The notes: generated by a model from the letters alone, not told the origin. Shown: positions 1,276 to 51,226, numbered from the stretch's first letter. The stretch: DNA of 64,000 nucleotides from Kiloniellaceae bacterium (GCA_021776115.1 JAJFGN010000068.1:665-64664); one strand, 5' to 3'. Program-made: numbers and translations.

Positions 1276-2280
1276 GTGTCCTTAACAATTTGGCAGAGTC
1301 AGAACTGGCTGGAGCGAGGCTTGAGTAGCTCAAAGACCTACAGTCTCAAGGGCAAACGTGTCTGGGTTGCCGGCCAGAATGGCATGGTCGGGCGTGCCCT
1401 CGTGCACTGCCTAGAGCGGGAAGATTGCGTCATCCTTTTTTTGGATCGCCATCGGCTTGATCTGCGGCGGCAAGCTGATGTCGAGGCTTGGTTGGCAAGC
1501 GCCGAGCCGCAGGTGGTGGTCCTGGCGGCGGCACGTGTTGGCGGGATTCATGCCAACAATACTTACCCGGCGGACTTCATTTACGACAACCTGGCCATCG
1601 AGACGAACATCATCCAGGCCGCCCATCTTGCGGGTGTCGAAAAGCTCTTGTTCCTTGGCTCATCCTGCGTCTATCCACGCGAAGCGCCCCAGCCCATTTC
1701 CGAAAACGCACTGCTGAGCGGCCCTTTGGAGCCAACCAATGAATGGTATGCGATCGCGAAGATCGCAGGCATCAAGATGTGCCAAGCCTACCGGCGGCAA
1801 TATAACTGCGACTTCATATCGGTAATGCCGTCTAATCTTTTCGGGCCAGGGGATAACTTCCATCCCGAGAACAGTCATGTGCCGGCCGCACTTCTGCTCC
1901 GTTTTCATGAGGCTAAGGTCGCGGGACGGGACGAGGTCGTCGTCTGGGGCACCGGCAAGCCGAGGCGGGAATTCCTCTATTTAGACGACTTAGCTGACGC
2001 CTGTGTCTTTTTGCTCAAGCACTATTCTGACGAACAGCCCGTTAACATTGGCACTGGTTTTGATTTGCCCATTTCCGAATTCGCGGCAAAAGTCGCCCGC
2101 ATTGTCGGATTTAGGGGACGCATCGCTTACGACCCATCACGTCCCGACGGCACGCCAGCAAAGCTGTTGGATGTCCGAGTTATAAACGAGATGGGTTGGG
2201 CTGCGCCAACGTCTTTGGAGCGCGGTCTTGAGCTCTACTATGAGTGGTTTCTTGGCAATATTGCCGAATTGCGCAGCTAG
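1276..2280 (+). CDS. fcl: GDP-L-fucose synthase (GDP-4-keto-6-deoxy-D-mannose 3,5-epimerase/4-reductase)
   Basis: KRVWVAGQNGMVGRAL Rossmann motif, GSSCVYP, YAIAKIAG (YxxxK), and C-terminal GTPAKLLDV typical of Fcl/WcaG. TTG at 1321, preceded by GGAG, is a plausible alternative start. Confidence 0.9.
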   Translation: MSLTIWQSQNWLERGLSSSKTYSLKGKRVWVAGQNGMVGRALVHCLEREDCVILFLDRHRLDLRRQADVEAWLASAEPQVVVLAAARVGGIHANNTYPADFIYDNLAIETNIIQAAHLAGVEKLLFLGSSCVYPREAPQPISENALLSGPLEPTNEWYAIAKIAGIKMCQAYRRQYNCDFISVMPSNLFGPGDNFHPENSHVPAALLLRFHEAKVAGRDEVVVWGTGKPRREFLYLDDLADACVFLLKHYSDEQPVNIGTGFDLPISEFAAKVARIVGFRGRIAYDPSRPDGTPAKLLDVRVINEMGWAAPTSLERGLELYYEWFLGNIAELRS

Positions 2281-2495
2281 ATTGACTGCCTGGCCAAGCC
2301 GCCGAAAGGGGCGATACCGTGAGAATCGAGCTGCATCGACGTCTTGAGGTTCGAACCTGCCGGAACACATCTGCCGTGCTTTTGCGCCGACTGATTTGGC
2401 CGGCTCACCTATCGCGAATTAACGGCACGATTTTGATCTATTTGGGTGCAAGAGTGATGTCCTAAGCCGGAGGAGGTCGCAATATCGAGACCCAG

Positions 2496-3557
2496 TCAAG
2501 CCTTCACTTGCTCCAACTCCGCCAGGTCTGAACTGACCATCTCGCGCACGAGTTCGTGGAAAGTAGTTTTTGGCTTCCAGCCCAATACGTCGCGAGCCTT
2601 CGTGGCGTCTCCGCATAGGGTGCTTACTTCGGTCGGCCGGAAGTAACGGGGATCTATCGCGACCAGCGCGTCTCCGCTCTCCGCGTCGACCCCTGTTTCC
2701 TCTATACCCGCGCCGCGCCACTCGATCCGGCGTCCTACGTGTACGAACGCGAGCTCGACGAATTCGCGAACTGTGTGCTTCTCACCAGTGGCAAGAACGT
2801 AATCATCGGGCTCTGGCTGCTGCAGCATGAGCCACATGCCTTCCACATAGTCCCTGGCGTGCCCCCAATCTCTCTCTGCATCCAAATTTCCCAGATGTAG
2901 CCTTTGCTGCAAGCCGCGCTGAATGGCAGCCACAGCGCGGGTAATTTTGCGAGTAACGAAGGTCTCGCCCCGCGTCGGTCCTTCGTGATTGAAGAGAATT
3001 CCGTTGGAGGCATGAAGCCCATAAGCCTGTCGATAGTTAACGGTAATCCAGTATGCGTAAAGCTTGGCAGCTGCATAAGGGCTTCGCGGCCGAAACGGCG
3101 TTGTCTCCCGCTGCGGCTCTTCCGCCACGTCGCCATAGAGTTCCGAAGTGGAGGCCTGATAAAACTTCACGGTCTGCTCCATCCCCAAGATGCGGATGGC
3201 TTCCAGTAGTCGCAGGGTGCCGAGAGCATCGGCGTTCGCCGTGTATTCCGGAGTCTCGAAACTCACCTGAACGTGGCTCTGGGCAGCTAGGTTGTAAATC
3301 TCGGTGGGCTGAGTCTCCTGTACCAAGCGAATCAAATTTGTAGCGTCGGTAAGGTCGCCGTAGTGCATCGAAAAGGGAGGCCCTTCTTCGTGAATATCGT
3401 GATATAGATGATCCACACGCCCCGTGTTGAAAGACGAGGAACGCCGCTTCACGCCGTGGACCACATATCCTTTTTCAAGAAGGAATTCGGCCAAAAGCGC
3501 GCCATCTTGCCCAGTAATACCGGTGATCAATGCGACCTTCGTTTTCGAGCGTATCAT
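2496..3557 (-). CDS. gmd: GDP-mannose 4,6-dehydratase (long form)
   Basis: 353 aa. [48 protein letters not shown] and [17 protein letters not shown] give a near-canonical Gmd. Confidence 0.95.
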
Positions 3558-3750: not shown

Positions 3751-4641
3751 CTAGCCGTTTAATCTGGCAGCTGCCCGAATGCGCGTGGCCCGTGAGAAGG
3801 ATAAAAGTCGGCGATAGAGTGCCATAAAAACCGTTTGAGGAAGGGTCGAATGCGCCAAATAATAAATGAAATAGAGTAGCAGAAAACGGTTGGAGGGGAT
3901 GCTGCGCCATTCAACCCAGACCCGTATTAGAGAGCCAAGCGAATAGAAGTCCTTATGCTTTGCCTGTATTCCCGACCAAAGCTCGGCATAGAGATCCGAT
4001 GACACACTTTGCAGCATTCCTGTCGTTGCGACCTGATAATGGAAAAGTGGCTCAGGGATGGCCAAGCCATAAAAACCTGAAGTACCTAGGCGCAAATTGA
4101 ACTCCCAGTCCTCGCAACCTCGCCTCATAGACTCGTCATAACCGCCGGCTTGTTCCCAAACCTGCTTGCGGATGAATATGCAGTAGGGAACGTGATTTAA
4201 GAAAAGTTGCTCGAAGAAGTTGTAGGTCTTTTTAAGAACACCTGCCTCATTCCCTTCCAGGGAGATATGTGCGAAGGCATAGGCCCGGTCCGGGTTAGCC
4301 TCAAGAAGGGCGATTGCCTTGGCCAAGAACGTCGGCTCGATCCAATCATCGCAGTCGAGAGGCAACACGAACTCTCCAAGAGCCTCTCGAAAGCCCGTGT
4401 TACGGGCCCCCGGTAGGCCCCGGTTTTCCTGGTGAACCAACCTCACATCGTCGCCAAGGGTTTGCAAATAGGCGAGTGTGTCCGGTTCTGTTGACCCATC
4501 ATTCACGACGACAATTTCAAAGTCCCGAAAGGTTTGGGTGCGGACGCTATCCAATGCGCGACCGAGAAAGGCGTGAGCATTGTAACAGGGAATGATGACG
4601 CTGACATTCGGGGACTGAGCGTAGTTTCCAGCATAACTCAT
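3751..4641 (-). CDS. Glycosyltransferase family 2 (GT-A)
   Basis: VSVIIPCYNAHAFLGRALDSVRTQTFRDFEIVVVNDGS and LPLDCDD (DxD). Start moved from 4671 to ATG 4641, which forms an ATGA overlap with the upstream stop at 4638-4640. Confidence 0.85.
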   Translation of the reverse strand: MSYAGNYAQSPNVSVIIPCYNAHAFLGRALDSVRTQTFRDFEIVVVNDGSTEPDTLAYLQTLGDDVRLVHQENRGLPGARNTGFREALGEFVLPLDCDDWIEPTFLAKAIALLEANPDRAYAFAHISLEGNEAGVLKKTYNFFEQLFLNHVPYCIFIRKQVWEQAGGYDESMRRGCEDWEFNLRLGTSGFYGLAIPEPLFHYQVATTGMLQSVSSDLYAELWSGIQAKHKDFYSLGSLIRVWVEWRSIPSNRFLLLYFIYYLAHSTLPQTVFMALYRRLLSFSRATRIRAAARLNG

Positions 4642-5402
4642 GGTCGGCAGTCTGCCCAGATCTCGCCCCAACGCAACACTACCTCGACCGGTTTGAGACC
4701 GGCCGCTGAGATCTCATCCTCGAACTGCTTGAATGTGTGTTCGATATAGTGTGTTGGATCGGAGAAGTAATTGACACCCAACTCGGCGCGTAAGGGGTTA
4801 TGCCAATGGCGCTCGAAGAGAGGCACGCGGACAAGCAGCTTTCCAGCGTCCGTTCGAGAGATCACGTTCATGAGGAAGTCGACGCGCTGATCTATGTGCT
4901 CCAAAATATTGGATAGAACAACCACGTCCCAATGGTCCGAAGGAAGGTCCTTGAGCACATCGCCCAGCACAAATTTCAGATTTGCCGGGTTCTCGGCCGC
5001 AATAGCCTGGCTAAGACGTGGTTGATCCAGATCGATCCCGGTCACTTCGACGCCACGTACACGTTGCGCGATGCTGCGCGCGACCGCTCCGTATCCACAG
5101 CCAATATCCAGGACGGTACTTCCAGGGGAGATGCGATCGACGAAAAAGTCGTGATATGCCATTAGGCGATGCTTTGGGTGTTCGCCATTTCCATACGCTA
5201 CGGCCCGCTCATTGATCACTAAGTCTAGCCGGTCTTGAAGCATAAACAGGCGTTTAAGTGCGCTTGCCGGATCGTCCACGCGCGATTCCAGGATGAATTG
5301 CCCAAAGATCAGCGTTTCACGCAACCGGTATGGAATGAGCCGGTATAGGCACGCAACGAGCGCCGCAAGTTTGAGCAGGAGGGTCTTGCGCACGGCCATC
5401 AT
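4638..5402 (-). CDS. Class I SAM-dependent methyltransferase
   Basis: SAM motif I VLDIGCGYGAVARSIA and VVVLSNILEHI. Start moved to ATG 5402 (ATGA overlap with the upstream stop at 5399-5401). Confidence 0.8.
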   Translation of the reverse strand: MMAVRKTLLLKLAALVACLYRLIPYRLRETLIFGQFILESRVDDPASALKRLFMLQDRLDLVINERAVAYGNGEHPKHRLMAYHDFFVDRISPGSTVLDIGCGYGAVARSIAQRVRGVEVTGIDLDQPRLSQAIAAENPANLKFVLGDVLKDLPSDHWDVVVLSNILEHIDQRVDFLMNVISRTDAGKLLVRVPLFERHWHNPLRAELGVNYFSDPTHYIEHTFKQFEDEISAAGLKPVEVVLRWGEIWADCRP

Positions 5403-6520
5403 CTCCGTTGCTGCAAGAGTTGACGGAAAATCTGGTCGTGATGGCTGAGCCAATCGCGGATATCGAAATGCGATACGGCGCGGGCCCTGGCCGCGCCGGA
5501 CATTTCGCCGGCACGTTCGGCAATCCGGAGCATGCCGTTGGCAATATCACTGGCCGATGGGACCTGGGGGCGTTCCCAATCCTCGTCGCAGTTCAGGGCG
5601 ACGCCGGCCTCGCTGCCTACCAGTTCCGGGACTCCGCCTGTATTGGAATAGAGAACCGGCAACCCACATGCCAGGGCTTCCAGGACCGCGTTGGGGCACG
5701 GATCCTGGTGCTTGGTCGTGACATATGCTTGCGCCGAAGCATAGAGCAAGGGCGCTTCGGTTTGGCTATATGGCCCGACGATCCGAATGCAGCCGTCGAG
5801 CTTGAGATCGGCGATCAATTGCCGAGTGACATTCTGCGCGGCCGAATCTAAGCCTCCGGCAATCACGAGCTTAGCCTCAAGGCCACGCTTGCGTGCTTCG
5901 GCGAGGCCTTGCAGCGTGGACTGCAGTCGATAGAACAAATGGGCGCCGATTTTCCCGGTGAGCAGGAACGTTATTCCGTCCAAGCACTCTCTAGCCGCAT
6001 CGGATTGGGGACGGAACCGCTTCGTATCGACGGCGTTATAAAGAATCTCTCCCGGTCCGTCTCTCACGCCCAGAAAACGATGCGCGACCTTGCGGCAAAA
6101 TTCGCTTTGGTAGAAGACATGATCCGCGCAATGAAAAGTCCGTGCCATGCGCCGGTTCTGATACTGCCAGTCACCCTCGTACCAAGCAGGGTAAAACACG
6201 CCATTCTGATTATGAACGATGGGAATGCCGCGAGCCTTTAGGAGAGTGACCGCCAGATCGGGAAGGTAGGGTGCATTGCTTAGGACATAAGCGATATTAT
6301 AGCGCCAAAGGTGTTCGGCAAATTGCGCGCTCAACCGCTGAATTTTAACCAGAGGCCCGCCTTGGTCGCCAGAGCGCGCACCGCCATAGAACAACAGCGG
6401 CGCCGTGCCATGTCCGCTGCTTGGGATCGACGCAAGGGCGTGGGCCCCAAGGGCGCCCGAATAGGCAGCCCGTCCTACCCGCTTGGCAAGATGGTCACGG
6501 TGTAAGTGCGACGTCATCAC
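5399..6520 (-). CDS. Glycosyltransferase, GT-B fold (GT4-like)
   Basis: C-terminal GT-B signature QDPCPNAVLEALACGLPVLYSNTGGVPELVG. GTG 6520 / ATG 6517 overlaps the upstream stop. Confidence 0.8.
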   Translation of the reverse strand: MMTSHLHRDHLAKRVGRAAYSGALGAHALASIPSSGHGTAPLLFYGGARSGDQGGPLVKIQRLSAQFAEHLWRYNIAYVLSNAPYLPDLAVTLLKARGIPIVHNQNGVFYPAWYEGDWQYQNRRMARTFHCADHVFYQSEFCRKVAHRFLGVRDGPGEILYNAVDTKRFRPQSDAARECLDGITFLLTGKIGAHLFYRLQSTLQGLAEARKRGLEAKLVIAGGLDSAAQNVTRQLIADLKLDGCIRIVGPYSQTEAPLLYASAQAYVTTKHQDPCPNAVLEALACGLPVLYSNTGGVPELVGSEAGVALNCDEDWERPQVPSASDIANGMLRIAERAGEMSGAARARAVSHFDIRDWLSHHDQIFRQLLQQRR

Positions 6521-7626
6521 ATGAGGGGCCGGTATACCTGCTCGTAGTGCTGGCGCGCGATGTGACGCCAGTCAAATCCCTGCACGACGGTTTCGCGGGC
6601 CTTCAAGGCACGCGCGGTACGTTGCTCGGGTGTGGCGGCCAAGAGGGCCGAGGCCTGCTCGCACATAGTTTTCACGTCGTCGACTTCGACCAGGCCATTG
6701 AGCGCGGTGTTGGGAATGAGGTCCTCGGCTTGGCCCACTCTAGTCGAAACGACCGGCACGTGGGTTGCCATGCTTTCCATTAGCGCCATTGGGCCACCTT
6801 CCTCGCGGGAGGTGACAAGGTACAGGTCTAGGGCATGGTAATAGCGAACCATATCACGGTAATCGCTGAGAAAATCGTGGCGATAGGGGATCCCATGCCG
6901 TTCGAGCCCAAGCCGGACATAGCCGCGTGCGGGCCCCGTCAGCAGAACGAATATGGGGATGCGCTCGGCAAGACTGCGGACGGCTTCTATGAAGACGTCC
7001 GGCCCCTTGATTAACTTCGGCTCTACGCCATCTCCCCAGCCAACACCGTCCTTCTGAAACGAGCCGATGCATGTACGGTCGTCTGGGATTCCAAGTCGCG
7101 TTCGTGCATTGCGCCGCTGCTCAGGCGTGGGCGGAAGAAACAGACTGGTGTCGCAGCCGATTGGAATCTTGACCAGCTTCTCCCGGGGGACTCCCCAGTC
7201 GAGCAGTCGCCGTTCGACGAGGCTGGCGCCGGTTACGATTTTACTCAGCTGCGGAACACTTTTGACAAACATATCAATGTGTCTGGCTACGTCCGGGCCG
7301 TCCTCCGGCTTGCCGTGGAAAAATGACGTCACAAAACGGTTCGACCTCGCCATGTGGGAACCCCACGTTAGCCACATGTACTGCGATCCGAAATGGACCA
7401 CCCGATCGACAATGGGTGCGGGATTTGTAGTGATCGCGGCCGTCCCCGGGTGTTCGGCTTCAATGCCGTCGCATACATAGTTTCCGACCCAGTGGATTGC
7501 CCAATCCGCGCGCTCAACGACAAAATTGACCGGTGGGAACTTTGCATCATGCAAACCAAGACAGCGCAGGACGGAATAGCCCTGGCAGGTACCGGCGCGG
7601 GCGATATCTCGAACGAAGGTCTTCAT
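6517..7626 (-). CDS. Glycosyltransferase, GT-B fold (GT4-like)
   Basis: SREEGGPMALMESMATHVPVVSTRVGQAEDLI. ATGA overlap with the upstream gene at 7623-7626. Confidence 0.75.
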   Translation of the reverse strand: MKTFVRDIARAGTCQGYSVLRCLGLHDAKFPPVNFVVERADWAIHWVGNYVCDGIEAEHPGTAAITTNPAPIVDRVVHFGSQYMWLTWGSHMARSNRFVTSFFHGKPEDGPDVARHIDMFVKSVPQLSKIVTGASLVERRLLDWGVPREKLVKIPIGCDTSLFLPPTPEQRRNARTRLGIPDDRTCIGSFQKDGVGWGDGVEPKLIKGPDVFIEAVRSLAERIPIFVLLTGPARGYVRLGLERHGIPYRHDFLSDYRDMVRYYHALDLYLVTSREEGGPMALMESMATHVPVVSTRVGQAEDLIPNTALNGLVEVDDVKTMCEQASALLAATPEQRTARALKARETVVQGFDWRHIARQHYEQVYRPLM

Positions 7627-11398: not shown

Positions 11399-11399
11399 A

Positions 11400-14096: not shown

Positions 14097-14107
14097 GGCT
14101 ATCGCCC

Positions 14108-19389: not shown

Positions 19390-19417
19390 ATGGACGGCCC
19401 TTGTGCGTGACGATGGC

Positions 19418-21338: not shown

Positions 21339-21347
21339 TTTATGTCC

Positions 21348-23992: not shown

Positions 23993-24008
23993 ATGAAAGG
24001 GAACTAAA

Positions 24009-32014: not shown

Positions 32015-32016
32015 CA

Positions 32017-32634: not shown

Positions 32635-32639
32635 ACCGC

Positions 32640-38910: not shown

Positions 38911-38930
38911 GTCGTGTGCGGTGTGTGGTG

Positions 38931-43569: not shown

Positions 43570-45056
43570 GGCATTGGCCGGGGTTCGCTAACATAATGGC
43601 TGGCATCGACGGGGCGGTAGCCGGCACGCTTGAACAACCTATGCGATGCTGCGTTGCCGGGCAGCACTTCTGCCACCAGGCGCGCGCCGGGAAAAAGCGC
43701 GCGCCCCAGCGACAACGCGGCGGTGGCGATGCCGAGGCCATATTTGTCCGGATCGACGAGGACCGAGACCTCGTAGATATCGGAGTCTTCCGCCCGGTCC
43801 AAGCGCAGCACGCCAGCAGGTGCCCGATCATGCAGGACGAGGCACAGGACACGGTTTGGGTCGCCTAAGGATGCCTGCACCCAGGCCTTGTGCTCGTCGT
43901 TGGTTGGCGATCGAGGCGTGCGAGCATAGTGCCGTGTCTGGTCGGCGGCTTGCCAGCGAAACATGACCTCGGTATCCGCTGCCAAGGCCAAGCGCAGCGA
44001 CACGACGTTCCCGTCACGGGCGCGCGTAGTGGGCAGCAGCGCGCAAAGGGTTCTAAGCGTACCCCTGCCGTCACACAGCTGCGCCGCCCGTTCGCGCATG
44101 CCGAGAAGATCGCCGCTATCCGCGGCCAGATCGTTGATAGCGCGGGCAACCGCCGCCGGCGTCAAGGTATCGCTCCGCCCCAGGAGCCGTGCAGCACCAG
44201 TCCTCGCCAGTTCCTTGGCGGTCAGGTTCTGATTGTCGGCGGCGGTCACGACGAGGCTCGGCACGCCAAGGCAGCACCGCTCCCAAGTCGATATGCCGGC
44301 TGCGCCGATTGCGAGATCCGCGCGTATCATCAGGCCGGCCATATCCGTGACCTGGGCATGAAACTCGACGGCCTGCGCCATGGTATCGGCAAGGCTGCGC
44401 AAACCTTCGCCATGGGGCGAGGCCGCCCCAATCACCACATCCACGGCGGCGTCGATGCCGCTTTGGGCAATGCCTTCAAGAACGATCCTCGTAATGTTGT
44501 GCGGGTCGCTGGCGCCAAGACTCACAAGAATCTGCCGCATATACGGGCTTTCACGCCGCCGCCCCAGAGCTTGCGTCCGTGCCGCGGCAAACTGCGGGCG
44601 CAAAAGGGCGAACCGGGAGCCCAGAAGCAGGTAGCACCCGGTGGGAACGAGCGGCCGATAGTCGTCTTCCCGCCGTCCGGGAGCCTGGTCCAGAAGGAGA
44701 TCGCAATCGTGGCAACGATCAGCGAGATCGTCGATGACCATGATACGCTGTGCCCACGGCCGGCACGCGGTCTCGAATTTGGCATCGCGTTCGTAGTGAT
44801 CCACGATCATGAGATCGCATCCTTGTGGCCAACGACGGAACAGGGCCGCCGCTTCGTCGCCGAAGTCCGCATCAAGCTGGGCGATTTGGTGCTGGCCTTC
44901 TAACAAGGCTGGGATAACGACCGTAGTCTCTGCGGCGCAGGCAAACGCGCATGTCCAACCAGCCGCGCTCAGCGCGTCGGCGAGGGCAAGGCACCGCATC
45001 GCGTGTCCACCGCCGATGTGCGCGGAAGCTTCAACCCTTATAACCGCGAAGGGTAT
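43566..45056 (-). CDS. pseG: Fused PseG (UDP-2,4-diacetamido-2,4,6-trideoxy-beta-L-altropyranose hydrolase) / PseH-like GNAT acetyltransferase
   Basis: GT-B PseG-like body and a C-terminal GNAT ([19 protein letters not shown]...[13 protein letters not shown]). The first canonical ATG is at 44999. The frame stays open upstream and encodes the conserved PseG N-terminus (I)[18 protein letters not shown], so I place the start at ATA 45056 (see finding). End and frame are secure; the start is not. Confidence 0.75.
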
Positions 45057-45060
45057 GGCG

Positions 45061-45687
45061 CTATCCCTTCCTGAACAGCCACCACGTCAGATTGTCGAGG
45101 CCGGTCGCGCGCTTCCAGAAGAAGCCGTAGTCCAACAGCGTCAGGTCTGAGTGGCCAGTCATCCAGAAATCTCCGAAGTCCCGCCTGAACAATAATCCGG
45201 CATGACCGCGGTAGGGAATTTCCTCTTCCTTGTCGGAAAAGTACTCGCAGCACATGATGTACTTCGACGACACGCGGTGGATTTCCTTGCACGCCTGCGC
45301 GAGGTCGCCAGGTGCGATGTGGATCAGTACGCCGCTGGTGAAAGCCATATCGAACTCGCCGTCCGCGAAGGGCAAGTCGCCGGCCGCCGCATCGAAGACA
45401 GCCTCCTTCGGAAGAACCCCGTCGCCGACCAGCCGTTCGCGGGCGTCGGGATTGGGCTCGACGGCGGTCCGGCGCGCGGTGGTCAGCTGCTTCAGCGCCC
45501 GCATGTTGAGCCCGAGGTTGGCGCCGACCTCAAGAATACTTTTCGGTTCATCGCCGACGAGCGGGTCGAGAATGCGTGCCCACATACGCGCACGTGCGCA
45601 TAGCGCCACATCGTCGGCAACATTGCGCTTCGTATACTCATCACCGAAATCGCCGCGCCAAGCGTCCAATTGTTTGGTTCCGGTCAT
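45061..45687 (-). CDS. Pseudaminic-acid-biosynthesis-associated methylase family protein
   Basis: 208 aa. N-terminal QLDAWRGDFGDEYTKRN and ILEVGANLGLNMRAL match my recollection of the Pse-cluster-associated methylase family. Sits between the cytidylyltransferase and pseG. Confidence 0.65.
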   Translation of the reverse strand: MTGTKQLDAWRGDFGDEYTKRNVADDVALCARARMWARILDPLVGDEPKSILEVGANLGLNMRALKQLTTARRTAVEPNPDARERLVGDGVLPKEAVFDAAAGDLPFADGEFDMAFTSGVLIHIAPGDLAQACKEIHRVSSKYIMCCEYFSDKEEEIPYRGHAGLLFRRDFGDFWMTGHSDLTLLDYGFFWKRATGLDNLTWWLFRKG

Positions 45688-45699
45688 ACCGGTTCTCGC

Positions 45700-46440
45700 C
45701 TATGCTCTTGATATTGTGGTTCGGCCGCGATCGCCCATGTGCGCGTTGATCGCGGTGATTTCGGGGTGTTTGGCTATCACAGCCATGACCGCGTCGTATC
45801 CGGCGATGGCCGGGCCTGCCGGGAGGTGGGTAAACACCGTGCGAAAAAACTCCATATCCTCTGGAAAATCGAGAGTCCAGCGCATGAATTCCGTCTCGCC
45901 TCCCGGGCCGGGCAGGGCGGCGCGCTTGACCCCGGGCTGGGTACGTAGCCACGGAGTGACGTGTTCGCGCTCGTAGCAATCATTGGACTGCTGTGCCGCA
46001 CGGTCCAAGGCGCTGCGCGTGAACGCCTCGCAGTCGAGACCATGAGGCCAGGCGGGCGGCATGTTGTTGCATGCATAGTCGGCACCCTCCGCTGCGAGCA
46101 AATCCAAGACCCGGGCATTGATGTCCGGGTCACTCAATGGGCAATCGGAGGTGACGCGCATGATGATCGTAGCGCCGATAGCATCGGCAGCAACCTTGAA
46201 CCTGCCGAGTACATCGGTTTCGGAACCGCGCACCACCGTGGCGCCGCAGCGTTCCGCTTCCCGGGCGACACCGTCGGAGTCCTCGGTGTTCGGAATGGCG
46301 CAGCACACGTTGTCAATACCTCGAGTGACGCGACATCGCTCGATCACATGCGACAGCACGCTTCGGTCCGCAAGGTCTTTCAGCACTTTGCCGGGTAAAC
46401 GAGTGGATCCAAATCGCGCCTGTATGATGGCGGCCTGCAA
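45700..46440 (-). CDS. Cytidylyltransferase of the SpsF/COG1861 type (CMP-pseudaminic acid synthetase candidate)
   Basis: (M)QAAIIQARFGSTRLPGKVL, RVTSDCPL and RWTLDFPEDMEFF. Start moved from 46584 to TTG 46440, preceded by AGGA, which removes a 134-nt overlap with the upstream gene. Confidence 0.7.
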   Translation of the reverse strand: MQAAIIQARFGSTRLPGKVLKDLADRSVLSHVIERCRVTRGIDNVCCAIPNTEDSDGVAREAERCGATVVRGSETDVLGRFKVAADAIGATIIMRVTSDCPLSDPDINARVLDLLAAEGADYACNNMPPAWPHGLDCEAFTRSALDRAAQQSNDCYEREHVTPWLRTQPGVKRAALPGPGGETEFMRWTLDFPEDMEFFRTVFTHLPAGPAIAGYDAVMAVIAKHPEITAINAHMGDRGRTTISRA

Positions 46441-46450
46441 TGAGCCTATC

Positions 46451-47206
46451 CTAAATTCGCGTGGCAAAACCTTGTTCGCGCAGATACAGCTTGGCTTCGC
46501 ACGGCGTCTGCTCCGTGAAATGGAACATACTCGCTGCGGCCAGGGCCGATGCGCCGGCACGCAAGGCTTCCGCCATGTGCGCATAGTTACCAGCGCCGCC
46601 CGATGCGATTACCGGAATCGAAACCGCTTCCGCAACCTGCGAAATCAGGTCGACGTCATAGCCTTGCATCGTGCCATCCCTGTCCACCGAAGTGATGAGG
46701 ATCTCGCCGGCACCTAACGATTCGACACGCTGCGCCAGCGCGATCGGGCCAAGGCCGGTCGGCTGCGTGCCCGATTCAACGTAAACTTCGTAGCTCTCCT
46801 GGCCGTTTTTTTTGACATCGATCGACACCACCACGCATTGGCTTCCGAACTGTTTGGCAATCTCGCCGATTAGCTGCGGGCGACTCACCGCGGCTGTGTT
46901 CACGACAATTTTGTCGGCACCGACCTGGAGCAATTTACGCACATCGTCAAGGTTGCGGATGCCTCCGCCCACGGCGAGCGGCATGAAGCATTCGTCCGCC
47001 AAATCGTCGATGAGGTCGAAATCGGGGGCGCGCCCCTCGCGCGTCGCGGCGATATCTAGGAAGACCAGTTCGTCGACTTCGCGCATGTTGTAAACTTTCA
47101 CCGCCTGCATGGCGCTGCCGACCCGGCGCCAAGAGTCAAATCCGGCACCTTTGACAAGCGTCGTGTCCTTGTAGAGCAGTGTCGGCATGATTCGAGTCTT
47201 GAGCAT
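46451..47206 (-). CDS. HisF-like cyclase subunit (imidazole-glycerol-phosphate-synthase-like, glycan-cluster paralog)
   Basis: RIMPTLLYKDTTLVKG, DELVFLDI, PLAVGGGIRNLDDV and IPVIASGGAG. Confidence 0.85.
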   Translation of the reverse strand: MLKTRIMPTLLYKDTTLVKGAGFDSWRRVGSAMQAVKVYNMREVDELVFLDIAATREGRAPDFDLIDDLADECFMPLAVGGGIRNLDDVRKLLQVGADKIVVNTAAVSRPQLIGEIAKQFGSQCVVVSIDVKKNGQESYEVYVESGTQPTGLGPIALAQRVESLGAGEILITSVDRDGTMQGYDVDLISQVAEAVSIPVIASGGAGNYAHMAEALRAGASALAAASMFHFTEQTPCEAKLYLREQGFATRI

Positions 47207-47213
47207 CGAGACG

Positions 47214-47828
47214 TCACAACGCCAGGAAGTTTTGAATCAAACGAAAACCGGGCTTTTGGCTTTTCTCCGGGTGGAACTGGACGCCCATGATGTTCTTGTC
47301 CGCGACCACCGAAGTGAAACCGCCGCAGTACGGCGTTGTTCCGGCGACAAGGCGTGGGGCGCATTGGACGTAGTAGCTGTGGACGAAGTAGAAGTCGGCG
47401 CCAGGGCGTATCCCCTCGAAGATTGGCATGCCCTCAATCGCATTGACTTCGTTCCACCCGACGTGAGGAATGCGCTCTTCGGGCAATTGCGGCTTCATTT
47501 TCATGACCTTGGCGTTGATCCAGCCAAGTCCCTCAGCCTCTCCGCTTTCCTCCCCGCCTTGTGCAATCAGGTGCATGCCGAGACAGATACCCAGAAATGG
47601 AATCCCACGCTCGACGACACATTGTGAGAGCGCATCAGACATCCCGCTCTTGCGAAGGTTATTCATGGCTTCGCTAAATGCGCCGACCCCGGGCAGAACA
47701 ACTTTCGACGCCTGCCGCAAGGCCTTCGGATCGGCAGTGACAAATGGGTCGCCGCCGCAGTCTTCGATCGCTCGGGCGATCGAGTCCAGGTTACAGAGGC
47801 CATAGTCAATGATAACCGTTCGGGTCAC
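47214..47828 (-). CDS. HisH-like glutamine amidotransferase subunit (glycan-cluster paralog)
   Basis: VIIDYGLCNLDSIARAI, LPGVGAF, FLGICLGMHL (nucleophile Cys) and GVQFHPEKS. GTGA overlap at 47825-47828. Confidence 0.85.
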   Translation of the reverse strand: MTRTVIIDYGLCNLDSIARAIEDCGGDPFVTADPKALRQASKVVLPGVGAFSEAMNNLRKSGMSDALSQCVVERGIPFLGICLGMHLIAQGGEESGEAEGLGWINAKVMKMKPQLPEERIPHVGWNEVNAIEGMPIFEGIRPGADFYFVHSYYVQCAPRLVAGTTPYCGGFTSVVADKNIMGVQFHPEKSQKPGFRLIQNFLAL

Positions 47829-48985
47829 GGATTATCGTCGTTGAGTTTCATCAGATTCTCGCGAGCGTCCTTGATCAGCTTGCCGTCGTTGGCACAGCGA
47901 AACAGCTTTTTGTTGGTGAAGCGGTCGCAGATCTTAATGAACTCGTCGAGGGGCATGTCGATTTCGCCAAGAATTTCTTCGATACGGCGCCCCAAACAGC
48001 TCCAGGGAAACTTGCCGTCGTGAATTTGGACGAGCTGCAAAGCATCGGCGCGTGACAGCCTGCCCCGCCGAATGTGGTTGCAAGAGATGTCGGTAGCGCG
48101 GCCGAAGCCGAATTTCAGGTACTTGAAATAGTCGTGAATGCCGGTCTGGTAGTTGTCAAGATTCTCGTAGTTTGCGATGGATCCTTCCACAGGGTGCGGA
48201 AAGGTTTCGAACCCATGTCCCTGCGCTACAAGGGCATTGCTATATCCGTCCCAGGGAAAGAAGTGTCCGAGGAAAATACCAGTAACTCCAACTCGTTGGA
48301 GATCGCTGTCGCTGGGATATTGGTATTGAATCAGGTGACGCTTCTCTATTCCTTCATGCCCGATTAGGTCGGTAACCCGCATGCCTAGGAGTCCGCCGAA
48401 TTCTTCGAGCCAGCGACGATTAAGAGTCCGACTTTGCGTGGCTGCGGCGGGTCCGCCGTATTCATTCTGCGGGTTCTCACCCCAGACGATCAGCCGAATG
48501 TTGTGCTGAACGGCGATGCGCACAGGCACAGTGAATATCGCGATATGCTCCGGCCAGGATATATCCCCGACCTGCCGTAGGGCCAGTCGGTTAATCCGCC
48601 GGCGAATCCGCGGGTTCATGGTGACCTCGATGTAGTCGACACCAAGGCCCTTCAGGTTCTCTATGTTGCGCCGGCCAATATCCGACAGTGAATCCGTCAT
48701 ACCTGTGACGCACAAGGGATTTAGACCTTGCTCGAGCACCTTGATCACCTGGTAGGTGCTGTCCTTGCCGCCACTTACCGGGACTAGGCAGTCATAGTTG
48801 CTGCCGGCCTTTGAGCGATACTCGTCGACGATTTCGAGAAATTCTCGGTGGCGAATATCCCAGTTGACCTCCATGCGGTTCTGATAGGCACGACAAGCAC
48901 TGCATACGCTATCGTCATCAAATTGCAGGTCCGGCTTTGTGTCCGGATAAAGACAACGCGTGCAATAGCGGATCATGTTAGCCAT
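47825..48985 (-). CDS. N-acetyl sugar amidotransferase (PP-loop ATPase; WbuX/PseA-like)
   Basis: N-terminal Cys cluster YCTRCLYPDTKP...CSAC and the PP-loop VPVSGGKDST. Confidence 0.8.
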   Translation of the reverse strand: MANMIRYCTRCLYPDTKPDLQFDDDSVCSACRAYQNRMEVNWDIRHREFLEIVDEYRSKAGSNYDCLVPVSGGKDSTYQVIKVLEQGLNPLCVTGMTDSLSDIGRRNIENLKGLGVDYIEVTMNPRIRRRINRLALRQVGDISWPEHIAIFTVPVRIAVQHNIRLIVWGENPQNEYGGPAAATQSRTLNRRWLEEFGGLLGMRVTDLIGHEGIEKRHLIQYQYPSDSDLQRVGVTGIFLGHFFPWDGYSNALVAQGHGFETFPHPVEGSIANYENLDNYQTGIHDYFKYLKFGFGRATDISCNHIRRGRLSRADALQLVQIHDGKFPWSCLGRRIEEILGEIDMPLDEFIKICDRFTNKKLFRCANDGKLIKDARENLMKLNDDNP

Positions 48986-50204
48986 TTGGATATTTCAGAT
49001 CGAGAGCCGCTGCGAGACATTCGACAACGCGATCGGCATCGCCATCGCTCATGCTTGGGAACAGCGGCAGCGATAGGCAGCGGGCGTAGTAGGCATCGGC
49101 TCCAGGTAGGGTGGAGTCTCCGTAGCGCTGCCGATAGTATGGCTGATTATGCACTGGTATATAGTGAACTTGCGCGCCGATACCGCTTTCTTTCAGGTGA
49201 TTGATGACCGTCGCCCGCTCCACGCCTGCAGCCTCGAAGTCAATCAACACAACAAAGAGATGCCAGGCGGTTGTGCAGTTCGCCACCCGCCCGATCGGGC
49301 GAACCCGCGGGGCGAGCGGCGCCAATAGCGTGTCATAACGAGCTGCAAGTTCACGTCGCCGCGCGACGAACTTGTCCAGCTTGCCGAGTTGACTCAGCCC
49401 AAGAGCACAATTGATATCGCTGGCTCGGTAGTTGAAACCGGGTTCCAGCATCTCGTAATACCAGGGATTGGGTCCTCCATTGTGGTCGAACGCCAATTCG
49501 CGATTGAAAAATTTTTCAGGCGCGCGAGTCATCCCGTGGCTACGCAATGTGCGGAGCTTCTCGTAGAGGTCCGCGTCGTTGGTCGTCACCATGCCACCTT
49601 CGCCCATGGCAATCGTCTTAACCGGGTGAAAGGAAAAAACGGCCATGTCCGAGTGACGGCAGGACCCCACGGCAAACTGTTCGTTCCCCGCCCGATACGC
49701 CGTGCCGACGGCGTGACAGGCGTCCTCCACGATCGCCATATCGCGGTCACGGGCGATACGTGAAAGCGCCACCATGTCGACTGTCTGACCATTGAGATGC
49801 ACGGGAAACACGGCACGAGGCGTGGTAGTTAAGCCCTCCGCGGCCTCTCGCAGAGTGTCCGGCGACATCAAGCCGGTTTCCGGGTCGACATCGCAGAACG
49901 TGACTTCCCCGCCAACGTAGCGCGCGGCATTGGCTGTCGCAAGAAAAGTCATCGTTGGGACAATCACCTGGTCGCCTTCGCCAAGATCGAGGGCCAGTGC
50001 AGCAAGGTGCAGGCCCGCTGTTCCATTGGAACAGGCCACCGCATAGCGGGCACTGACCTTTTCGGCAAAGGCCGTCTCGAACTTTTCGATCGTCGGTCCG
50101 GTGGTGAGCCAGTCACTCCTAAGCACAGCAACAACTGCGGCTACGTCGTCGTCGTCAATACATTGACGGCCATATGGAAGAAACGAAGGGGGGGCTGTGT
50201 TCAA
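48978..50204 (-). CDS. pseC: UDP-4-amino-4,6-dideoxy-N-acetyl-beta-L-altrosamine transaminase (DegT/DnrJ/EryC1 family)
   Basis: FLPYGRQCIDDDDVAAVVAVLRSDWLTTGP, AVACSNGTAGLHLA and SFHPVKTIAMGEGG (PLP lysine). Start moved to TTG 50204 (TTGA overlap with the pseB stop at 50201-50203). Confidence 0.85.
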   Translation of the reverse strand: MNTAPPSFLPYGRQCIDDDDVAAVVAVLRSDWLTTGPTIEKFETAFAEKVSARYAVACSNGTAGLHLAALALDLGEGDQVIVPTMTFLATANAARYVGGEVTFCDVDPETGLMSPDTLREAAEGLTTTPRAVFPVHLNGQTVDMVALSRIARDRDMAIVEDACHAVGTAYRAGNEQFAVGSCRHSDMAVFSFHPVKTIAMGEGGMVTTNDADLYEKLRTLRSHGMTRAPEKFFNRELAFDHNGGPNPWYYEMLEPGFNYRASDINCALGLSQLGKLDKFVARRRELAARYDTLLAPLAPRVRPIGRVANCTTAWHLFVVLIDFEAAGVERATVINHLKESGIGAQVHYIPVHNQPYYRQRYGDSTLPGADAYYARCLSLPLFPSMSDGDADRVVECLAAALDLKYPNG

Positions 50205-51226
50205 ACAGTTGTTTCCTGCAACAGCTTCGCCAGAGCAATATCGTCCAGCCATTCGTCGTTCGTATTCGACGCATATCGAAAACCTTCGGGCACCAACGAG
50301 CAGTCTGAATAGTTATCGCTATTCCAGAATTTTAAAGCGGGCTGGATGACATAGCGGTCGGGTAGGTATCCCGTCGTTCGCGCATCATCCTCGGTGATCA
50401 TCACTTCGTGCATTTTTTCACCGGGCCGAATGCCGATTACCTTGATCGGCAAATTCGGGGCCATAACGCGAGCCATATCGGTGATTTTGGTGCTGGGGAT
50501 CTTCGGCACGAATATCTCGCCGCCGTGCATAATCGCGAGAGACGAGAGTACGAAATCGACGCCTTGGCGCAGGGTGATCCAGAATCGGGTCATGCGTTCA
50601 TCCGTGATCGGCAAGTGGTCGGCATGCTCCGCGATTAGACGGCGAAATAGAGGCACAATGCTGCCGCGCGAGCCAATGACATTGCCGTAGCGCACGACGG
50701 AGAACGCGGTGACGCCACCGCTCAGATTGTTGGCGGCAACGAAAATCTTGTCTGAGGCAAGCTTGCTGGCACCGTAAAGATTGATTGGACTTGCTGCCTT
50801 GTCTGTGGAGAGAGCCAGGACCTTGCTCACACCGCTCCGGATTGCGGCTTTTACGACGTTCTCGGCTCCCAGGACGTTTGTGTGAATGCATTCGAACGGG
50901 TTGTACTCGGCCGCCGGTACGTGTTTGAGAGCGGCGGCATGGACGACGAGATTCACGCCGCGCATGGCCATTTCCAGTCTGTCGACATCGCGCACGTCGC
51001 CGATGAAGTAGCGCATGCAGGGATGACGTGTGTCGTCGAACTCCTGCGCCATCTCGTACTGTTTCATCTCGTCGCGGGAGAAAACGATAAGCCTGGCCGG
51101 CTTGTGGTGCGACAAAACGGTTCGCACGAACGCGCGTCCAAAGGAGCCCGTTCCGCCAGTCACAAGAACTGACTTTCCGTTCAAATCGAGGTTGGCGTTG
51201 TTGAAGTCGCGAAAAGGAAACGTCAT
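50201..51226 (-). CDS. pseB: UDP-N-acetylglucosamine 4,6-dehydratase (inverting)
   Basis: LNGKSVLVTGGTGSFGRAFV, LIVFSRDEMKQYEM, GDVRD, VVHAAALKHVP and YGASKLASDK. Start moved from 51472 to ATG 51226 (MTFPFRDFNN). Confidence 0.9.
   Translation of the reverse strand: MTFPFRDFNNANLDLNGKSVLVTGGTGSFGRAFVRTVLSHHKPARLIVFSRDEMKQYEMAQEFDDTRHPCMRYFIGDVRDVDRLEMAMRGVNLVVHAAALKHVPAAEYNPFECIHTNVLGAENVVKAAIRSGVSKVLALSTDKAASPINLYGASKLASDKIFVAANNLSGGVTAFSVVRYGNVIGSRGSIVPLFRRLIAEHADHLPITDERMTRFWITLRQGVDFVLSSLAIMHGGEIFVPKIPSTKITDMARVMAPNLPIKVIGIRPGEKMHEVMITEDDARTTGYLPDRYVIQPALKFWNSDNYSDCSLVPEGFRYASNTNDEWLDDIALAKLLQETTV

Follow-up and report, generated by a model that had tools for sequence, protein, structure and literature searches.

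In Helicobacter pylori, O antigen is flipped by Wzk, a homologue of PglK, and the genes for WecA and WaaL are unlinked from the glycosyltransferase (GT) genes (PMC2841628). In a second type of machinery, KpsC and KpsS assemble chains of ulosonic acids at the membrane, on lipid (PMC10148158). HP-motif relatives of the enzymes discussed below transfer pseudaminic acid (Pse) or legionaminic acid (Leg) in the protein O-glycan of Tannerella (PMC5420450). Here we describe a glycan island of about 50 kb (~1276-51472) in a 64,000-nucleotide stretch of DNA from a Kiloniellaceae bacterium (GCA_021776115.1, JAJFGN010000068.1:665-64664), referred to as the window. In common with H. pylori Wzk and Campylobacter jejuni PglK, the island has one half-transporter, a transmembrane domain (TMD) joined to a nucleotide-binding domain (NBD), as its sole membrane step, combined with cytoplasmic GTs and no Wzx, Wzy or Wzm/Wzt.

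We propose, with a probability of roughly one in two, that the island directs the cytoplasmic assembly of a lipid-linked, multiply O-methylated acidic heteroglycan with up to three ulosonic acids, which is flipped in the manner of PglK and Wzk, priming and ligation being encoded elsewhere. Because polysaccharide loci rich in nonulosonic acids are common and the genes that appear to be missing have an ordinary explanation, the island does not stand as a category of its own but belongs, as an uncharacterised variant, to a familiar type of surface-glycan pathway. The combination of a PglK-like flippase, KpsC-like transferases and a fixed unit of kinase, TIGR04372 protein and NTP-transferase is likewise uncharacterised and is conserved across Alphaproteobacteria.

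The half-transporter and the assembly genes

The ABC protein encoded at 26277-28091 shows the build of a half-transporter, with an N-terminal TMD and a C-terminal NBD (homodimeric and about 560-600 aa in this class). When the membrane domain (aa 1-345) was compared with 177,635 PDB sequences at E <= 1e-3, the only matches were the PglK entries 5c73 and 6hrc (6.5e-12, aa 17-334 against PglK 2-318); MsbA, Sav1866, ABCB, other type-IV exporters and ChvA-like structures were not matched by the TMD in this search. The full-length comparison is dominated by the ATPase domain and, among bacterial half-transporters, lists PglK at 228 bits. The initial annotation, made by a model from the sequence alone, had called the protein MsbA/PglK-like; the half-transporter is indeed present, and its membrane domain is PglK-like rather than MsbA-like.

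The cavity arginines R86, R260, R302 and R309 of PglK are functionally relevant and probably make contact with the pyrophosphate of lipid-linked oligosaccharides (PMC5395944). In the island protein K102, R277, R318 and T325 occupy the aligned positions, with positive charge kept at three of the four and R260 and R302 conserved. The same pattern (K or R, R, R, T) is retained in the orthologues of three related loci, L003, L006 and L007, and is not retained in the more distant L009.

About 60 open reading frames (ORFs) of the window were scanned with Pfam and NCBIfam profiles, and none belongs to the Wzx, Wzy, Wzz, Wza/Wzc, Wzm/Wzt, KpsMTED, phosphoglycosyltransferase or ligase families. Hydropathy was scored over the chosen ORFs and over all stop-to-stop frames of at least 50 codons in six frames. 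Within the island, more than two hydrophobic segments occur in the ABC protein only, and each of the three frames with two segments is the antisense of a gene whose family match is strong. A polytopic polymerase such as Wzy, a ligase, a flippase or an initiating transferase hidden among the hypothetical proteins is thereby ruled out; the ABC half-transporter is the one polytopic protein of the island, and its enzymes are all soluble. The initial annotation had reported these families as absent and had left it to profile searches whether canonical initiation or polymerase genes lay among its hypothetical ORFs. The absence is borne out, and no such gene came to light in the ORFs scanned. Its statement that dedicated export genes are lacking is not right, as the ABC protein looks like a dedicated inner-membrane step.

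Several observations weigh against a lipid-linked, PglK-style route. With the NCBIfam PglK equivalog NF050066 the ABC protein scores 239 bits and fails the cut-off of 1000, for which reason we call it PglK-like and not PglK; its best full-length profile is MsbA_lipidA (261 bits, cut-off 602), and a ChvA-type match is also obtained. One of the PglK cavity arginines is replaced by threonine (R309) and one by lysine (R86), and Gly and Ile stand opposite the external-helix tyrosines Y50 and Y56. Half-transporters of the MsbA type are also exporters of lipids or, as with ChvA/NdvA, of soluble glucans. The 64-kb window and the related loci, even those with more than 20 kb of kept gene order, lack genes for an initiating transferase, a ligase or an oligosaccharyltransferase, and no PglC/WecA, PglB or WaaL gene lies near the island, a difference from the PglK and Wzk systems. 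Finally, one island protein combines TPR repeats with a GT-B domain, an architecture that typifies GTs directed at proteins (e.g. OGT and FlmG).

Of the three readings offered in the initial annotation, namely decoration of flagellin or pilin, a K-antigen-like capsule and a PglK-like flippase, the last nevertheless gains most: the membrane domain matches PglK alone in the PDB, the K/R/R charges are kept, and the transporter gene belongs to the core of the related clusters.

A conserved gene cluster in related loci

Related loci (L numbers) were collected from a genome scan, a metagenome scan and contig look-ups, the GTDB scan giving four relatives. Synteny is conserved over the middle and lower parts of the island, which recur as a cluster in a Rhizobiaceae metagenome-assembled genome (MAG), in Magnetovibrio blakemorei MV-1, in a Devosia MAG and on many metagenome contigs. 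The recurrent order begins with the tailoring genes of module B (see below), a conserved unknown protein, a methyltransferase, a KpsC-like GT and the ABC half-transporter; it continues with the P-loop kinase, the TIGR04372 GT-B, the NTP_transf_3 protein, the GFO oxidoreductase and the NeuB-SAF-cupin synthase, and ends with the HAD phosphatase, the CMP-transferase, the 14108-type GT, a GT1, the GT4-like protein and the Gmd paralogue. Its core consists of the ABC transporter, the kinase, the TIGR04372 GT, the NTP-transferase, the GFO protein and the NeuB-SAF-cupin synthase. The ABC gene is a fixed member of this core in L003, L006, L007, L010, L012-L015 and a 25-kb JGI/NCBI contig. Compared with the conserved cluster, the window has in addition the Pse module, two KpsC-like proteins, GmhA, the histidine phosphatase and extra methyltransferases.

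The recurrent core may be read in another way, as an undescribed route to an exported glycoconjugate that is primed without a polyprenyl-phosphate glycosylphosphotransferase. A KpsS/KpsC-like ulosonic-acid start on phospholipid would be followed by a GT9-like addition of heptosyl type, giving an 'inner-core-like' glycolipid independent of lipid A, and the product of the NeuB-SAF-cupin synthase would be a chemically undescribed ulosonic acid. The gene set on which this idea draws comprises the PglK-like ABC protein, the P-loop kinase, the TIGR04372 GT-B (with or without TPR), NTP_transf_3, GFO, NeuB-SAF-cupin, the CMP-transferase and a KpsC-like GT. We regard it as tentative and, on balance, unlikely.

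In two relatives an MBOAT gene lies directly 3' of the conserved GT genes, in M. blakemorei (L004:9969-11561, +, 121 bits) and at the 3' end of L009 (2.5-Mb contig). A polytopic family of 570-580 aa with 10-14 transmembrane segments and an N-terminal 'WRPF.LG...DDW' motif is encoded in L008 (3078-4820, -) and L022 (2-2173, +), the two proteins being 32% identical; it has no Pfam match, adjoins NeuB-cupin or TIGR04372 genes in both loci and is absent from the window. This family may be GT-C-like or ligase-like. Both kinds of protein agree with extracytoplasmic handling of the glycan. In MV-1 the stretch of TIGR04372, NTP-transferase, GFO and NeuB-cupin genes is found on two contigs (L004 Q44 and L005 Q49) with identical identities to the window proteins, which reflects either a genuine duplication or an error of assembly.

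Single-module KpsC-like transferases

The four GT-B proteins of HP type that the initial annotation had listed are all present, although the HP motif itself is found in three of them (14108, 38931 and 40716, named here by gene start) and is absent from the fourth (37483), which reads VRPRVHE. A 51-sequence profile of the 38931 family gives KpsC as each of the top five PDB matches (best 7.8e-5, about 100 residues covered), and the AlphaFold2 model of 38931 (predicted local distance difference test, pLDDT, 93.8) retrieves the KpsC N-domain as each of the top five Foldseek matches (E 1.3e-8 to 4.6e-7, TMt 0.50-0.58). The Pfam family Capsule_synth (PF05159) is matched by 38931 and 40716 just above its cut-off of 20 bits (20.6 and 21.2 bits, E about 3e-4). 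An exhaustive phmmer search places relatives of 38931 in 2665 representative clusters, and across the family profile D352, H389 and P390 are invariant (51/51) and N348 is nearly so (48/51).

β-Kdo transferases, which use 3-deoxy-D-manno-octulosonate (Kdo), have an invariant QxxxD motif with the Asp as nucleophile (PMC10148158). The 38931 family has NxxxD in its place and 40716 has HxxxD, the equivalence being one of motif order and not of superposition. The families of 14108 and 38931 are homologous over the HP-containing C-terminal domain (hhalign probability 92%). A search of the PDB with the 14108-family profile gave insignificant matches only (best relevant, TarL, E 0.31), and a PDB search with 40716 gave no match. 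Weak NCBIfam BFO_1060 matches of 14108, 37483 and 38931 (20-41 bits, cut-off 200) agree with a relation to ulosonic-acid transferases, BFO_1060 being the Tannerella Pse/Leg transferase. Since KpsC heads both the profile and the fold searches and the NxxxD, HP and E motifs are present, the sequences and the model indicate that the HP-type proteins are remote, single-module relatives of retaining ulosonic-acid transferases (KpsC-like, GT107-like). The divergent 37483, which in its longest ORF shares 118 nt with the next gene, may work by another mechanism or lack catalytic activity. The TIGR04372 protein was also considered as kin of these enzymes, and hhalign found no relation.

With KpsC/KpsS (GT107) and WbbB (GT99) the island proteins share a GT-B fold with an HP motif and, presumably, the use of CMP-activated ulosonic acids; they also have an invariant Asp four residues after a conserved polar residue, which resembles the QxxxD nucleophile motif. 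They differ in that they have a single module, a length of 510-600 aa and an N-terminal half that is large and unrelated, and their presumed donors are Pse and two other acids, not Kdo. The Tannerella forsythia enzymes BFO_1060/Tanf_01245 are likewise soluble HP-motif GT-B proteins and take CMP-Pse or CMP-Leg as donors (PMC5420450). They differ in that they act on an undecaprenyl-diphosphate-linked O-glycan that is finished in general protein O-glycosylation, and the island proteins score far below the cut-off of their family.

The positions of these genes suggest that each CMP-sugar module is paired with its own HP-type transferase, because the 14108-, 40716- and 38931-type genes sit by their respective modules. 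The 14108 gene always follows the NeuB-cupin/CMP-transferase module (L003-L010, L012-L015), genes of the 40716 type adjoin the acetamidino genes (HisH/HisF/WbuX) in L008 and L009, and those of the 38931 type lie next to the tailoring genes of module B in L006 and L007.

Pse, Kdo, Kdn (2-keto-3-deoxynonulosonic acid) and O-methyl hexoses abound in rhizobial K antigens. The island might be taken to make a rhizobial K-antigen or group-2-like capsule, with KpsS/KpsC-like transferases starting and extending the chain on (lyso)phosphatidylglycerol, KpsMT/KpsED (RkpRST-type) proteins encoded elsewhere exporting it, and the island ABC protein accessory or unrelated. The KpsC-like fold and motifs of 38931 and its relatives and the Capsule_synth matches at threshold would suit such a capsule, as would a KpsS/KpsC chemistry that dispenses with a polyprenyl-phosphate initiating transferase (PMC10148158). 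We nonetheless consider a capsule improbable. No KpsM, KpsT, KpsE or KpsD gene is present in the window or its relatives, no island protein is specifically KpsS-like, and the single-module build and the replacement of the invariant QxxxD by NxxxD set the island proteins apart from KpsC, to which the profile matches are weak (E 8e-5) as well as short. A capsule exported in this way would also make the co-conserved PglK-like transporter redundant. The capsule reading of the initial annotation thus gains from the fold of the HP-type transferases and loses from the lack of KpsMTED-type genes.

A fixed kinase, TIGR04372 and nucleotidyltransferase trio

The gene at 21348-23063, which was not in the gene list of the initial annotation, encodes a TPR plus TIGR04372 GT-B protein. 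In its AlphaFold2 model (pLDDT 89), helical repeats span residues 8-193 and the GT-B domain residues 198-571. The closest GT-B folds in Foldseek are GT9 heptosyltransferases (3tov, WaaF, WaaC) and TibC, and TPR-containing O-GlcNAc transferase (OGT) is also retrieved; a PDB sequence search gave no match. Orthologues form about 50 clusters in 5.8 billion proteins. Their N-terminal region is poorly conserved; several homologues of 380-519 aa, with no more than 57-69% coverage of the query, lack it or have another sequence in its place.

The P-loop kinase gene always precedes the TIGR04372 gene. The three genes for kinase, TIGR04372 protein and NTP_transf_3 are never split in the related loci, among them L003, L006, L007, L010-L018 and L024, and the ABC gene precedes them on almost every contig long enough to show it. 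Together they have the look of a functional unit for which no role is described. A fixed set of this kind is a difference from the pgl and H. pylori loci, which are without it. A gene for a GmhA-like isomerase is nearby in the window (13512) and directly follows the trio in L024. Since the TIGR04372 gene is fixed between kinase and nucleotidyltransferase, and a GmhA-like isomerase is near, the arrangement suggests, as an idea only, a unit for donor activation and transfer, possibly for NDP-heptose.

Caulobacter FlmG is a 596-aa protein with TPR repeats at 1-313 and a GT-B domain at 309-596 (PMC7591256), and the class has been reported as limited to Caulobacterales (bioRxiv 10.1101/2023.12.03.569772). 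The TIGR04372 protein resembles FlmG of Caulobacter and Brevundimonas in having N-terminal TPR-like repeats and a C-terminal GT-B domain in about 570-600 aa, a likeness of architecture, and in being encoded near nonulosonic-acid genes (PMC7591256). It differs in lacking linkage to flagellin, in the variability of its TPR region among orthologues, in a fold closest to GT9 and in the constant position of its gene between kinase and NTP-transferase, beside the ABC exporter.

If the TIGR04372 protein acted like FlmG, its TPR region would bind a protein and its GT-B domain would place an ulosonic acid from a CMP donor on Ser/Thr, after which soluble GTs would extend and methyltransferases decorate the glycan, with no need of carrier, flippase or ligase. 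The build of the 571-aa protein (repeats 1-193, GT-B 198-571) matches that of FlmG (PMC7591256), the Foldseek matches include TPR-GT41 O-GlcNAc transferases as well as the protein heptosyltransferase TibC, and Tannerella sets a precedent for HP-motif enzymes in protein O-glycans (PMC5420450). The solubility of all the island enzymes and the role of Pse as a classic flagellin sugar point the same way. On the other side, no flagellin was found in L003-L025 by tblastn with the E. coli FliC N-domain (E <= 1e-5 to 1e-8), a search that is weak for divergent flagellins. Pfam scans of the window ORFs showed no Maf domain (MAF_flag10, PF01973), and no flagellar family appeared in the Pfam/NCBIfam scans by which the window was covered, no direct flagellin query having been made of its 61 ORFs. 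The reported confinement of the FlmG class to Caulobacterales (bioRxiv 10.1101/2023.12.03.569772) and the absence of the N-terminal region from some TIGR04372 homologues also speak against it. Placed between kinase and nucleotidyltransferase, the TIGR04372 gene has the look of a member of a trio for donor activation and transfer, not of a CMP-Pse user. The conserved and tightly linked ABC exporter would go unexplained, and the MBOAT genes of two relatives point to an exported glycan. Cytoplasmic protein O-glycosylation is therefore weakened as a reading, and we consider it a poor candidate.

Three predicted routes to CMP-ulosonic acids

The three NeuB-family proteins are 27-39% identical in pairwise comparison, and all three keep the NxH, KxQ, PFDE, K(I/V)AS, STG, GxSxH and ExH motifs. 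With this divergence and with all motifs kept, they are neither recent duplicates nor obviously dead, and apparently represent divergent, active synthases. The initial annotation had proposed up to three different CMP-ulosonic acids, of which Pse alone could be assigned, and had allowed that two of the paralogues might prove inactive, or redundant for Pse synthesis. The former view is supported, as the Pse equivalogs pass their cut-offs and the other two synthases (17842 and 36561) reach neither the NeuB nor the PseI cut-off. Inactivity or redundancy of two paralogues is rejected on account of the intact catalytic motifs, the divergence and the differing accessory genes; each non-Pse NeuB is accompanied by a phosphatase and a CMP-transferase of its own.

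Module A (42493-51472) is, by curated NCBIfam cut-offs, a complete pseudaminic-acid route, without a PseF model match for its cytidylyltransferase (20.9 bits, cut-off 205.7). PseB, PseC, PseG, PseI, the Pse-associated methylase, WbuX (333.8 bits, cut-off 203) and WbuZ (310.6 bits, cut-off 299.7) all pass, and HisH scores 222 bits. The PseH-like part of the PseG fusion is a GNAT domain (Pfam Acetyltransf_3, residues 335-462), for which no PseH-specific model match was reported. The WbuX/HisH/WbuZ amidotransferase set, which adds to the inventory of the initial annotation, predicts an acetamidino derivative, so the product is probably an acetamidino and/or methylated form of CMP-Pse.

Module B contains a NeuB-family synthase without SAF domain. 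Next to its CMP-transferase gene, a conserved trio of B12-radical-SAM gene, DEDD exonuclease-fold gene and opposite-strand SDR (31250-34127) is found in the window, L006, L007 and L013, the DEDD gene lying beside the radical-SAM gene in each of these relatives. The DEDD protein is odd for a sugar pathway and might be a nucleotide-sugar hydrolase. The 326-aa protein encoded at 30171-31151 has no Pfam or NCBIfam match; by eye, it shows an HxD...H pattern (HVDGD...CLHQG) that recalls 2-oxoglutarate/Fe(II) oxygenases, so that it could be an ulosonic-acid hydroxylase; its gene adjoins a methyltransferase gene.

The synthase of module C is a NeuB-SAF-cupin fusion whose synthase part is closest to an uncharacterised Chromobacterium protein (PDB 3g8r, 2.8e-85) and whose cupin resembles D-lyxose/D-mannose and mannose-6-phosphate isomerases in a PDB search. 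The fusion had 5879 matches at E <= 1e-20 among 8000 candidates scored, and its carriers include Thalassospira and Rhodospirillales, Geobacteraceae and cyanobacterial MAGs; a literature search on NeuB-cupin fusions or Thalassospira nonulosonic acids returned nothing. Because HAD phosphatase and CMP-transferase genes adjoin the fusion and its cupin is isomerase-like, module C looks, from its predicted proteins, like a sugar-phosphate route of Kdn type. The start of the methyltransferase annotated at 16973-18106 is probably later, since this ORF overlaps the 3' end of the NeuB-cupin gene (the L009 homologue has 298 aa).

Modules B and C share with the Kdn pathway the set of NeuB-family synthase, HAD phosphatase and CMP-transferase that marks a sugar-phosphate route; the module B phosphatase matches the KDN-9-P phosphatase model, and the module C cupin the isomerases of mannose and mannose-6-phosphate. 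They differ in that all module B and C scores are below cut-off and in the additional GFO oxidoreductase, B12-radical-SAM enzyme, SDR and methyltransferases, which imply modified or different acids.

Proposed assembly route

In the proposed route, the island would act as a self-contained production line in the cytoplasm, its product being an acidic heteroglycan rich in O-methyl groups. Module A would supply CMP-Pse by way of PseB, PseC, PseG-GNAT, PseI, the cytidylyltransferase and WbuX/HisH/WbuZ. Module B would follow a sugar-phosphate path through its SAF-less NeuB, KdsC/KDN-9-P-phosphatase-like HAD and CMP-transferase, with the B12-radical-SAM enzyme, the SDR, the putative oxygenase, methyltransferases and the pyruvyl-transferase-family protein as candidates for tailoring. 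In module C, the synthase would receive an aldose or its phosphate (e.g. mannose-6-phosphate) from the cupin domain, and the Kdn-like acid formed would be dephosphorylated by the HAD enzyme and then activated with CMP. Each acid would be transferred by the KpsC-like HP-motif GT-B paired with its module. Fucose, 6-deoxyhexose and hexose would be added by the GT1, GT2 and GT4 enzymes from GDP- and UDP-sugars, the ten methyltransferases that use S-adenosylmethionine (SAM) would decorate the chain, and the kinase, NTP-transferase and TIGR04372 GT-B would activate and add one further residue, possibly heptose.

The chain would be extended on a lipid carrier in the cytoplasmic membrane, on its inner face, and the island ABC protein would flip the product. 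Priming, by a WecA-type phosphoglycosyltransferase or a KpsS-like start on phospholipid, would be encoded outside the window, as would the final step, by a WaaL-type ligase or an oligosaccharyltransferase, as in H. pylori lipopolysaccharide (LPS) synthesis. A Wzy would not be needed because the cytoplasmic GTs would carry out polymerisation, and a glycan ending on lipid A-core would need no outer-membrane exporter.

A soluble, non-lipid-linked acidic oligosaccharide or glycoside pumped by the ABC protein, as cyclic beta-glucans are by the MsbA-like ChvA/NdvA, or a glycan built on lipid A-core and flipped with it as in a lipooligosaccharide, is improbable: the lack of initiating or ligating genes in any cluster copy, the ChvA-type and MsbA matches in NCBIfam, a TIGR04372 fold closest to the GT9 heptosyltransferases that act on Kdo2-lipid A, and a kinase and GmhA-like isomerase that recall LPS inner-core chemistry are set against a membrane domain that matches PglK and neither MsbA nor a ChvA-like structure, the positive charges kept at the pyrophosphate-contact positions of PglK, and the presence of three acidic sugars and ten glycosyltransferases, which would be out of the ordinary in a free oligosaccharide.

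If the flippase route is true, PglK/Wzk-type export, so far documented in Epsilonproteobacteria, extends to environmental Alphaproteobacteria and serves very complex glycans with three ulosonic acids. The island also offers testable partners for three large families without experimental function, the NeuB-SAF-cupin, single-module KpsC-like HP-motif and TIGR04372 proteins. A one-to-one pairing of CMP-modules with HP-type transferases would help to predict the specificity of nonulosonic-acid transferases, a known gap, and the island enzymes are candidate tools for the synthesis of Pse-containing, Kdn-like and methylated glycans.

Gene content, composition and borders

The inventory and near-unidirectional layout given in the initial annotation are borne out: the three NeuB-family synthases, three CMP-transferases, two HAD phosphatases, GDP-fucose genes and five ordinary GTs (starting at 3751, 5399, 6517, 10373 and 12333, the match of 10373 being weak) all lie at or near the positions it gave. 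Together with four KpsC-like GT-B proteins, one TPR plus TIGR04372 GT-B, ten class-I SAM methyltransferases and the B12-radical-SAM enzyme, they are arranged in a nearly gap-free minus-strand run from about 51472 down to 2496, with three plus-strand genes in the island (fcl, the FkbM methyltransferase and the SDR). The gene ends chosen in the initial annotation (19389, 16976, 46440 and 51226) suit the lengths of homologues and overlap less than the longest ORFs, which are 17842-19458 for NeuB-cupin, 16296-17114 for the HAD, 45700-46584 for the cytidylyltransferase and up to 51472 for PseB.

Table 1 Annotated features of the window, by position
Feature	Coordinates	Strand	Evidence and remarks
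ORF of 132 aa without family match	72-470	+	overlaps the NusG paralogue, upstream of it
NusG paralogue (RfaH/UpxY-like)	467-970	+	Pfam NusG 73.6 bits; distal edge of island
GDP-L-fucose synthase Fcl	1276-2280	+	GDPFucSynFcl 489.8 bits (cut-off 500); Pfam Epimerase
GDP-mannose 4,6-dehydratase Gmd	2496-3557	-	Pfam GDP_Man_Dehyd 522.8 bits
GT2 glycosyltransferase	3751-4671	-	Pfam Glycos_transf_2 108 bits
SAM methyltransferase	4638-5453	-	Pfam Methyltransf_25/12/23
Two GT1/GT4-type glycosyltransferases	5399-6520, 6517-7626	-	Pfam Glycos_transf_1, Glyco_trans_1_4
Gmd paralogue, candidate GDP-4-keto-6-deoxymannose reductase (Rmd/Tld-type)	7623-8618	-	GDP_Man_Dehyd 327 bits
Two SAM methyltransferases	8611-9462, 9513-10316	-	Pfam Methyltransf_11/25
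Conserved GT4-like protein	10373-11416	-	weak Pfam Glyco_transf_4
SAM methyltransferase	11400-12206	-	Pfam Methyltransf_11 68 bits
GT1 glycosyltransferase	12333-13445	-	Pfam Glycos_transf_1
GmhA-like SIS sugar-phosphate isomerase	13512-14126	-	Pfam SIS_2 93.7 bits; NCBIfam gmhA 185.6 bits (cut-off 209)
HP-motif GT-B (YRPHPW)	14108-15640	-	weak NCBIfam BFO_1060 match
CMP-ulosonic-acid synthetase (module C)	15571-16299	-	CTP_transf_3 74.9 bits; PseF-like 123 bits, below cut-off
HAD phosphatase (module C)	16296-16976	-	Pfam Hydrolase, HAD_2
SAM methyltransferase	16973-18106	-	Pfam Methyltransf_23 85.6 bits
NeuB-SAF-cupin fusion synthase (module C)	17842-19389	-	Pfam NeuB 128 bits, Cupin_2 40.6 bits, Lyx_isomer
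GFO/IDH/MocA oxidoreductase	19418-20512	-	Pfam; always adjoins NeuB-cupin (synteny)
NTP_transf_3 nucleotidyltransferase	20595-21338	-	Pfam NTP_transf_3; always after TIGR04372 gene
TPR + TIGR04372 GT-B, 571 aa	21348-23063	-	NCBIfam TIGR04372 126 bits (cut-off 45), domain 328-545; weak Pfam TPR_14
P-loop (GITGPAGAGKS) small-molecule-kinase-like protein	23108-23818	-	weak Pfam AAA_17/18; 236 aa in L001
FkbM-type methyltransferase	24009-24848	+	Pfam Methyltransf_21 60.9 bits; opposite strand
Histidine phosphatase	24915-25505	-	Pfam His_Phos_1 131 bits
TylF-like O-methyltransferase	25525-26229	-	Pfam Methyltransf_24, TylF
PglK-like ABC half-transporter	26277-28091	-	604 aa; Pfam ABC_membrane 35-298, ABC_tran 388-536
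Two SAM methyltransferases	28256-29104, 29143-30174	-	Pfam
Conserved 326-aa protein, no family match	30171-31151	-	52-55% identity in L003, L006, L007
SDR	31250-32014	+	Pfam adh_short_C2 197 bits; opposite strand; same arrangement in L007
DEDD (RNase_T-like) exonuclease-fold protein	32017-32634	-	Pfam RNase_T 41.7 bits
B12-binding radical-SAM enzyme, candidate C-methyltransferase	32640-34127	-	Pfam Radical_SAM; B12-radical-SAM methylase families below cut-off
CMP-ulosonic-acid synthetase (module B)	34128-34856	-	Pfam CTP_transf_3 68.6 bits
KdsC/KDN-9-P-phosphatase-like HAD (module B)	34853-35365	-	KDN-9-P phosphatase 88.7, KdsC 88.2 bits, both below cut-off
Polysaccharide pyruvyl-transferase-family protein	35374-36558	-	Pfam PS_pyruv_trans 65 bits (cut-off 25.3)
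NeuB-family synthase without SAF (module B)	36561-37436	-	Pfam NeuB 232 bits; best PDB match 6ncs, 1.3e-40
Divergent HP-type relative without HP motif (VRPRVHE)	37483-39048	-	TIGR04396 39 bits, BFO_1060 35 bits, both below cut-off
KpsC-like (GT107-like) single-module ulosonic-acid transferase candidate	38931-40709	-	Pfam Capsule_synth 20.6 bits
Second KpsC-like HP-motif GT-B (KPHPAE)	40716-42518	-	Pfam Capsule_synth 21.2 bits
PseI	42493-43569	-	NCBIfam PseI 515 bits (cut-off 340); NeuB + SAF, Pfam NeuB 295 bits
PseG fused to GNAT (PseH-like) domain	43566-44999	-	NCBIfam PseG 236.8 bits (cut-off 153.6)
Pse-associated methylase	45061-45687	-	NCBIfam TIGR03587 161 bits (cut-off 112)
Cytidylyltransferase of Pse module	45700-46440	-	Pfam CTP_transf_3 76 bits
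WbuZ (HisF-like), HisH, WbuX set	46451-48985	-	amidotransferase genes
PseC	48978-50252	-	NCBIfam 501 bits (cut-off 423.5)
PseB	50201-51226	-	NCBIfam 505 bits (cut-off 407.75); domain begins at residue 97 of the longest ORF

Among the genes of the lower island, the Gmd paralogue at 7623-8618 is 38% identical to Gmd and falls below the NCBIfam gmd cut-off (303.6 bits, cut-off 415). The GT4-like protein at 10373-11416 has relatives of 56-63% identity in L003, L006, L007 and L009 (tblastn) and none in a PDB search. Two ORFs were rejected as genes: 51392-52021 has no family match, sits over the operon leader and is probably not a gene, and the minus-strand ORF 31262-32212 was dropped in favour of the plus-strand SDR.

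The right flank has a G+C content of 60-64% and the Pse module (40-46 kb) one of 62-63%; at mid-island (20001-30000) the content falls to 52-53%, and because of this drop the island looks mosaic and partly foreign in origin. Searches for tRNA and RNA-family landmarks at the island borders found none.

Pyruvyl-transferase-family genes and RfaH-like NusG paralogues are usual companions of surface-polysaccharide operons. The NusG paralogue of the window scores 111.5 bits with the NCBIfam RfaH model (below its cut-off of 144.5) and 78.7 bits with UpxY. It is translationally coupled to the 132-aa ORF, and the pair lies at the distal, not the promoter, end of the island. The E. coli-type ops element GGCGGTAGNNTG, allowing up to two mismatches, is not more frequent than expected by chance, and no good site lies in the leader (51473-51975). 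To the right of the island, a conserved three-gene set on the plus strand (53405-56734) encodes a circularly permuted ATP-grasp protein, an Alpha-E domain protein and a transglutaminase-like protein, and appears not to be related to the glycan genes.

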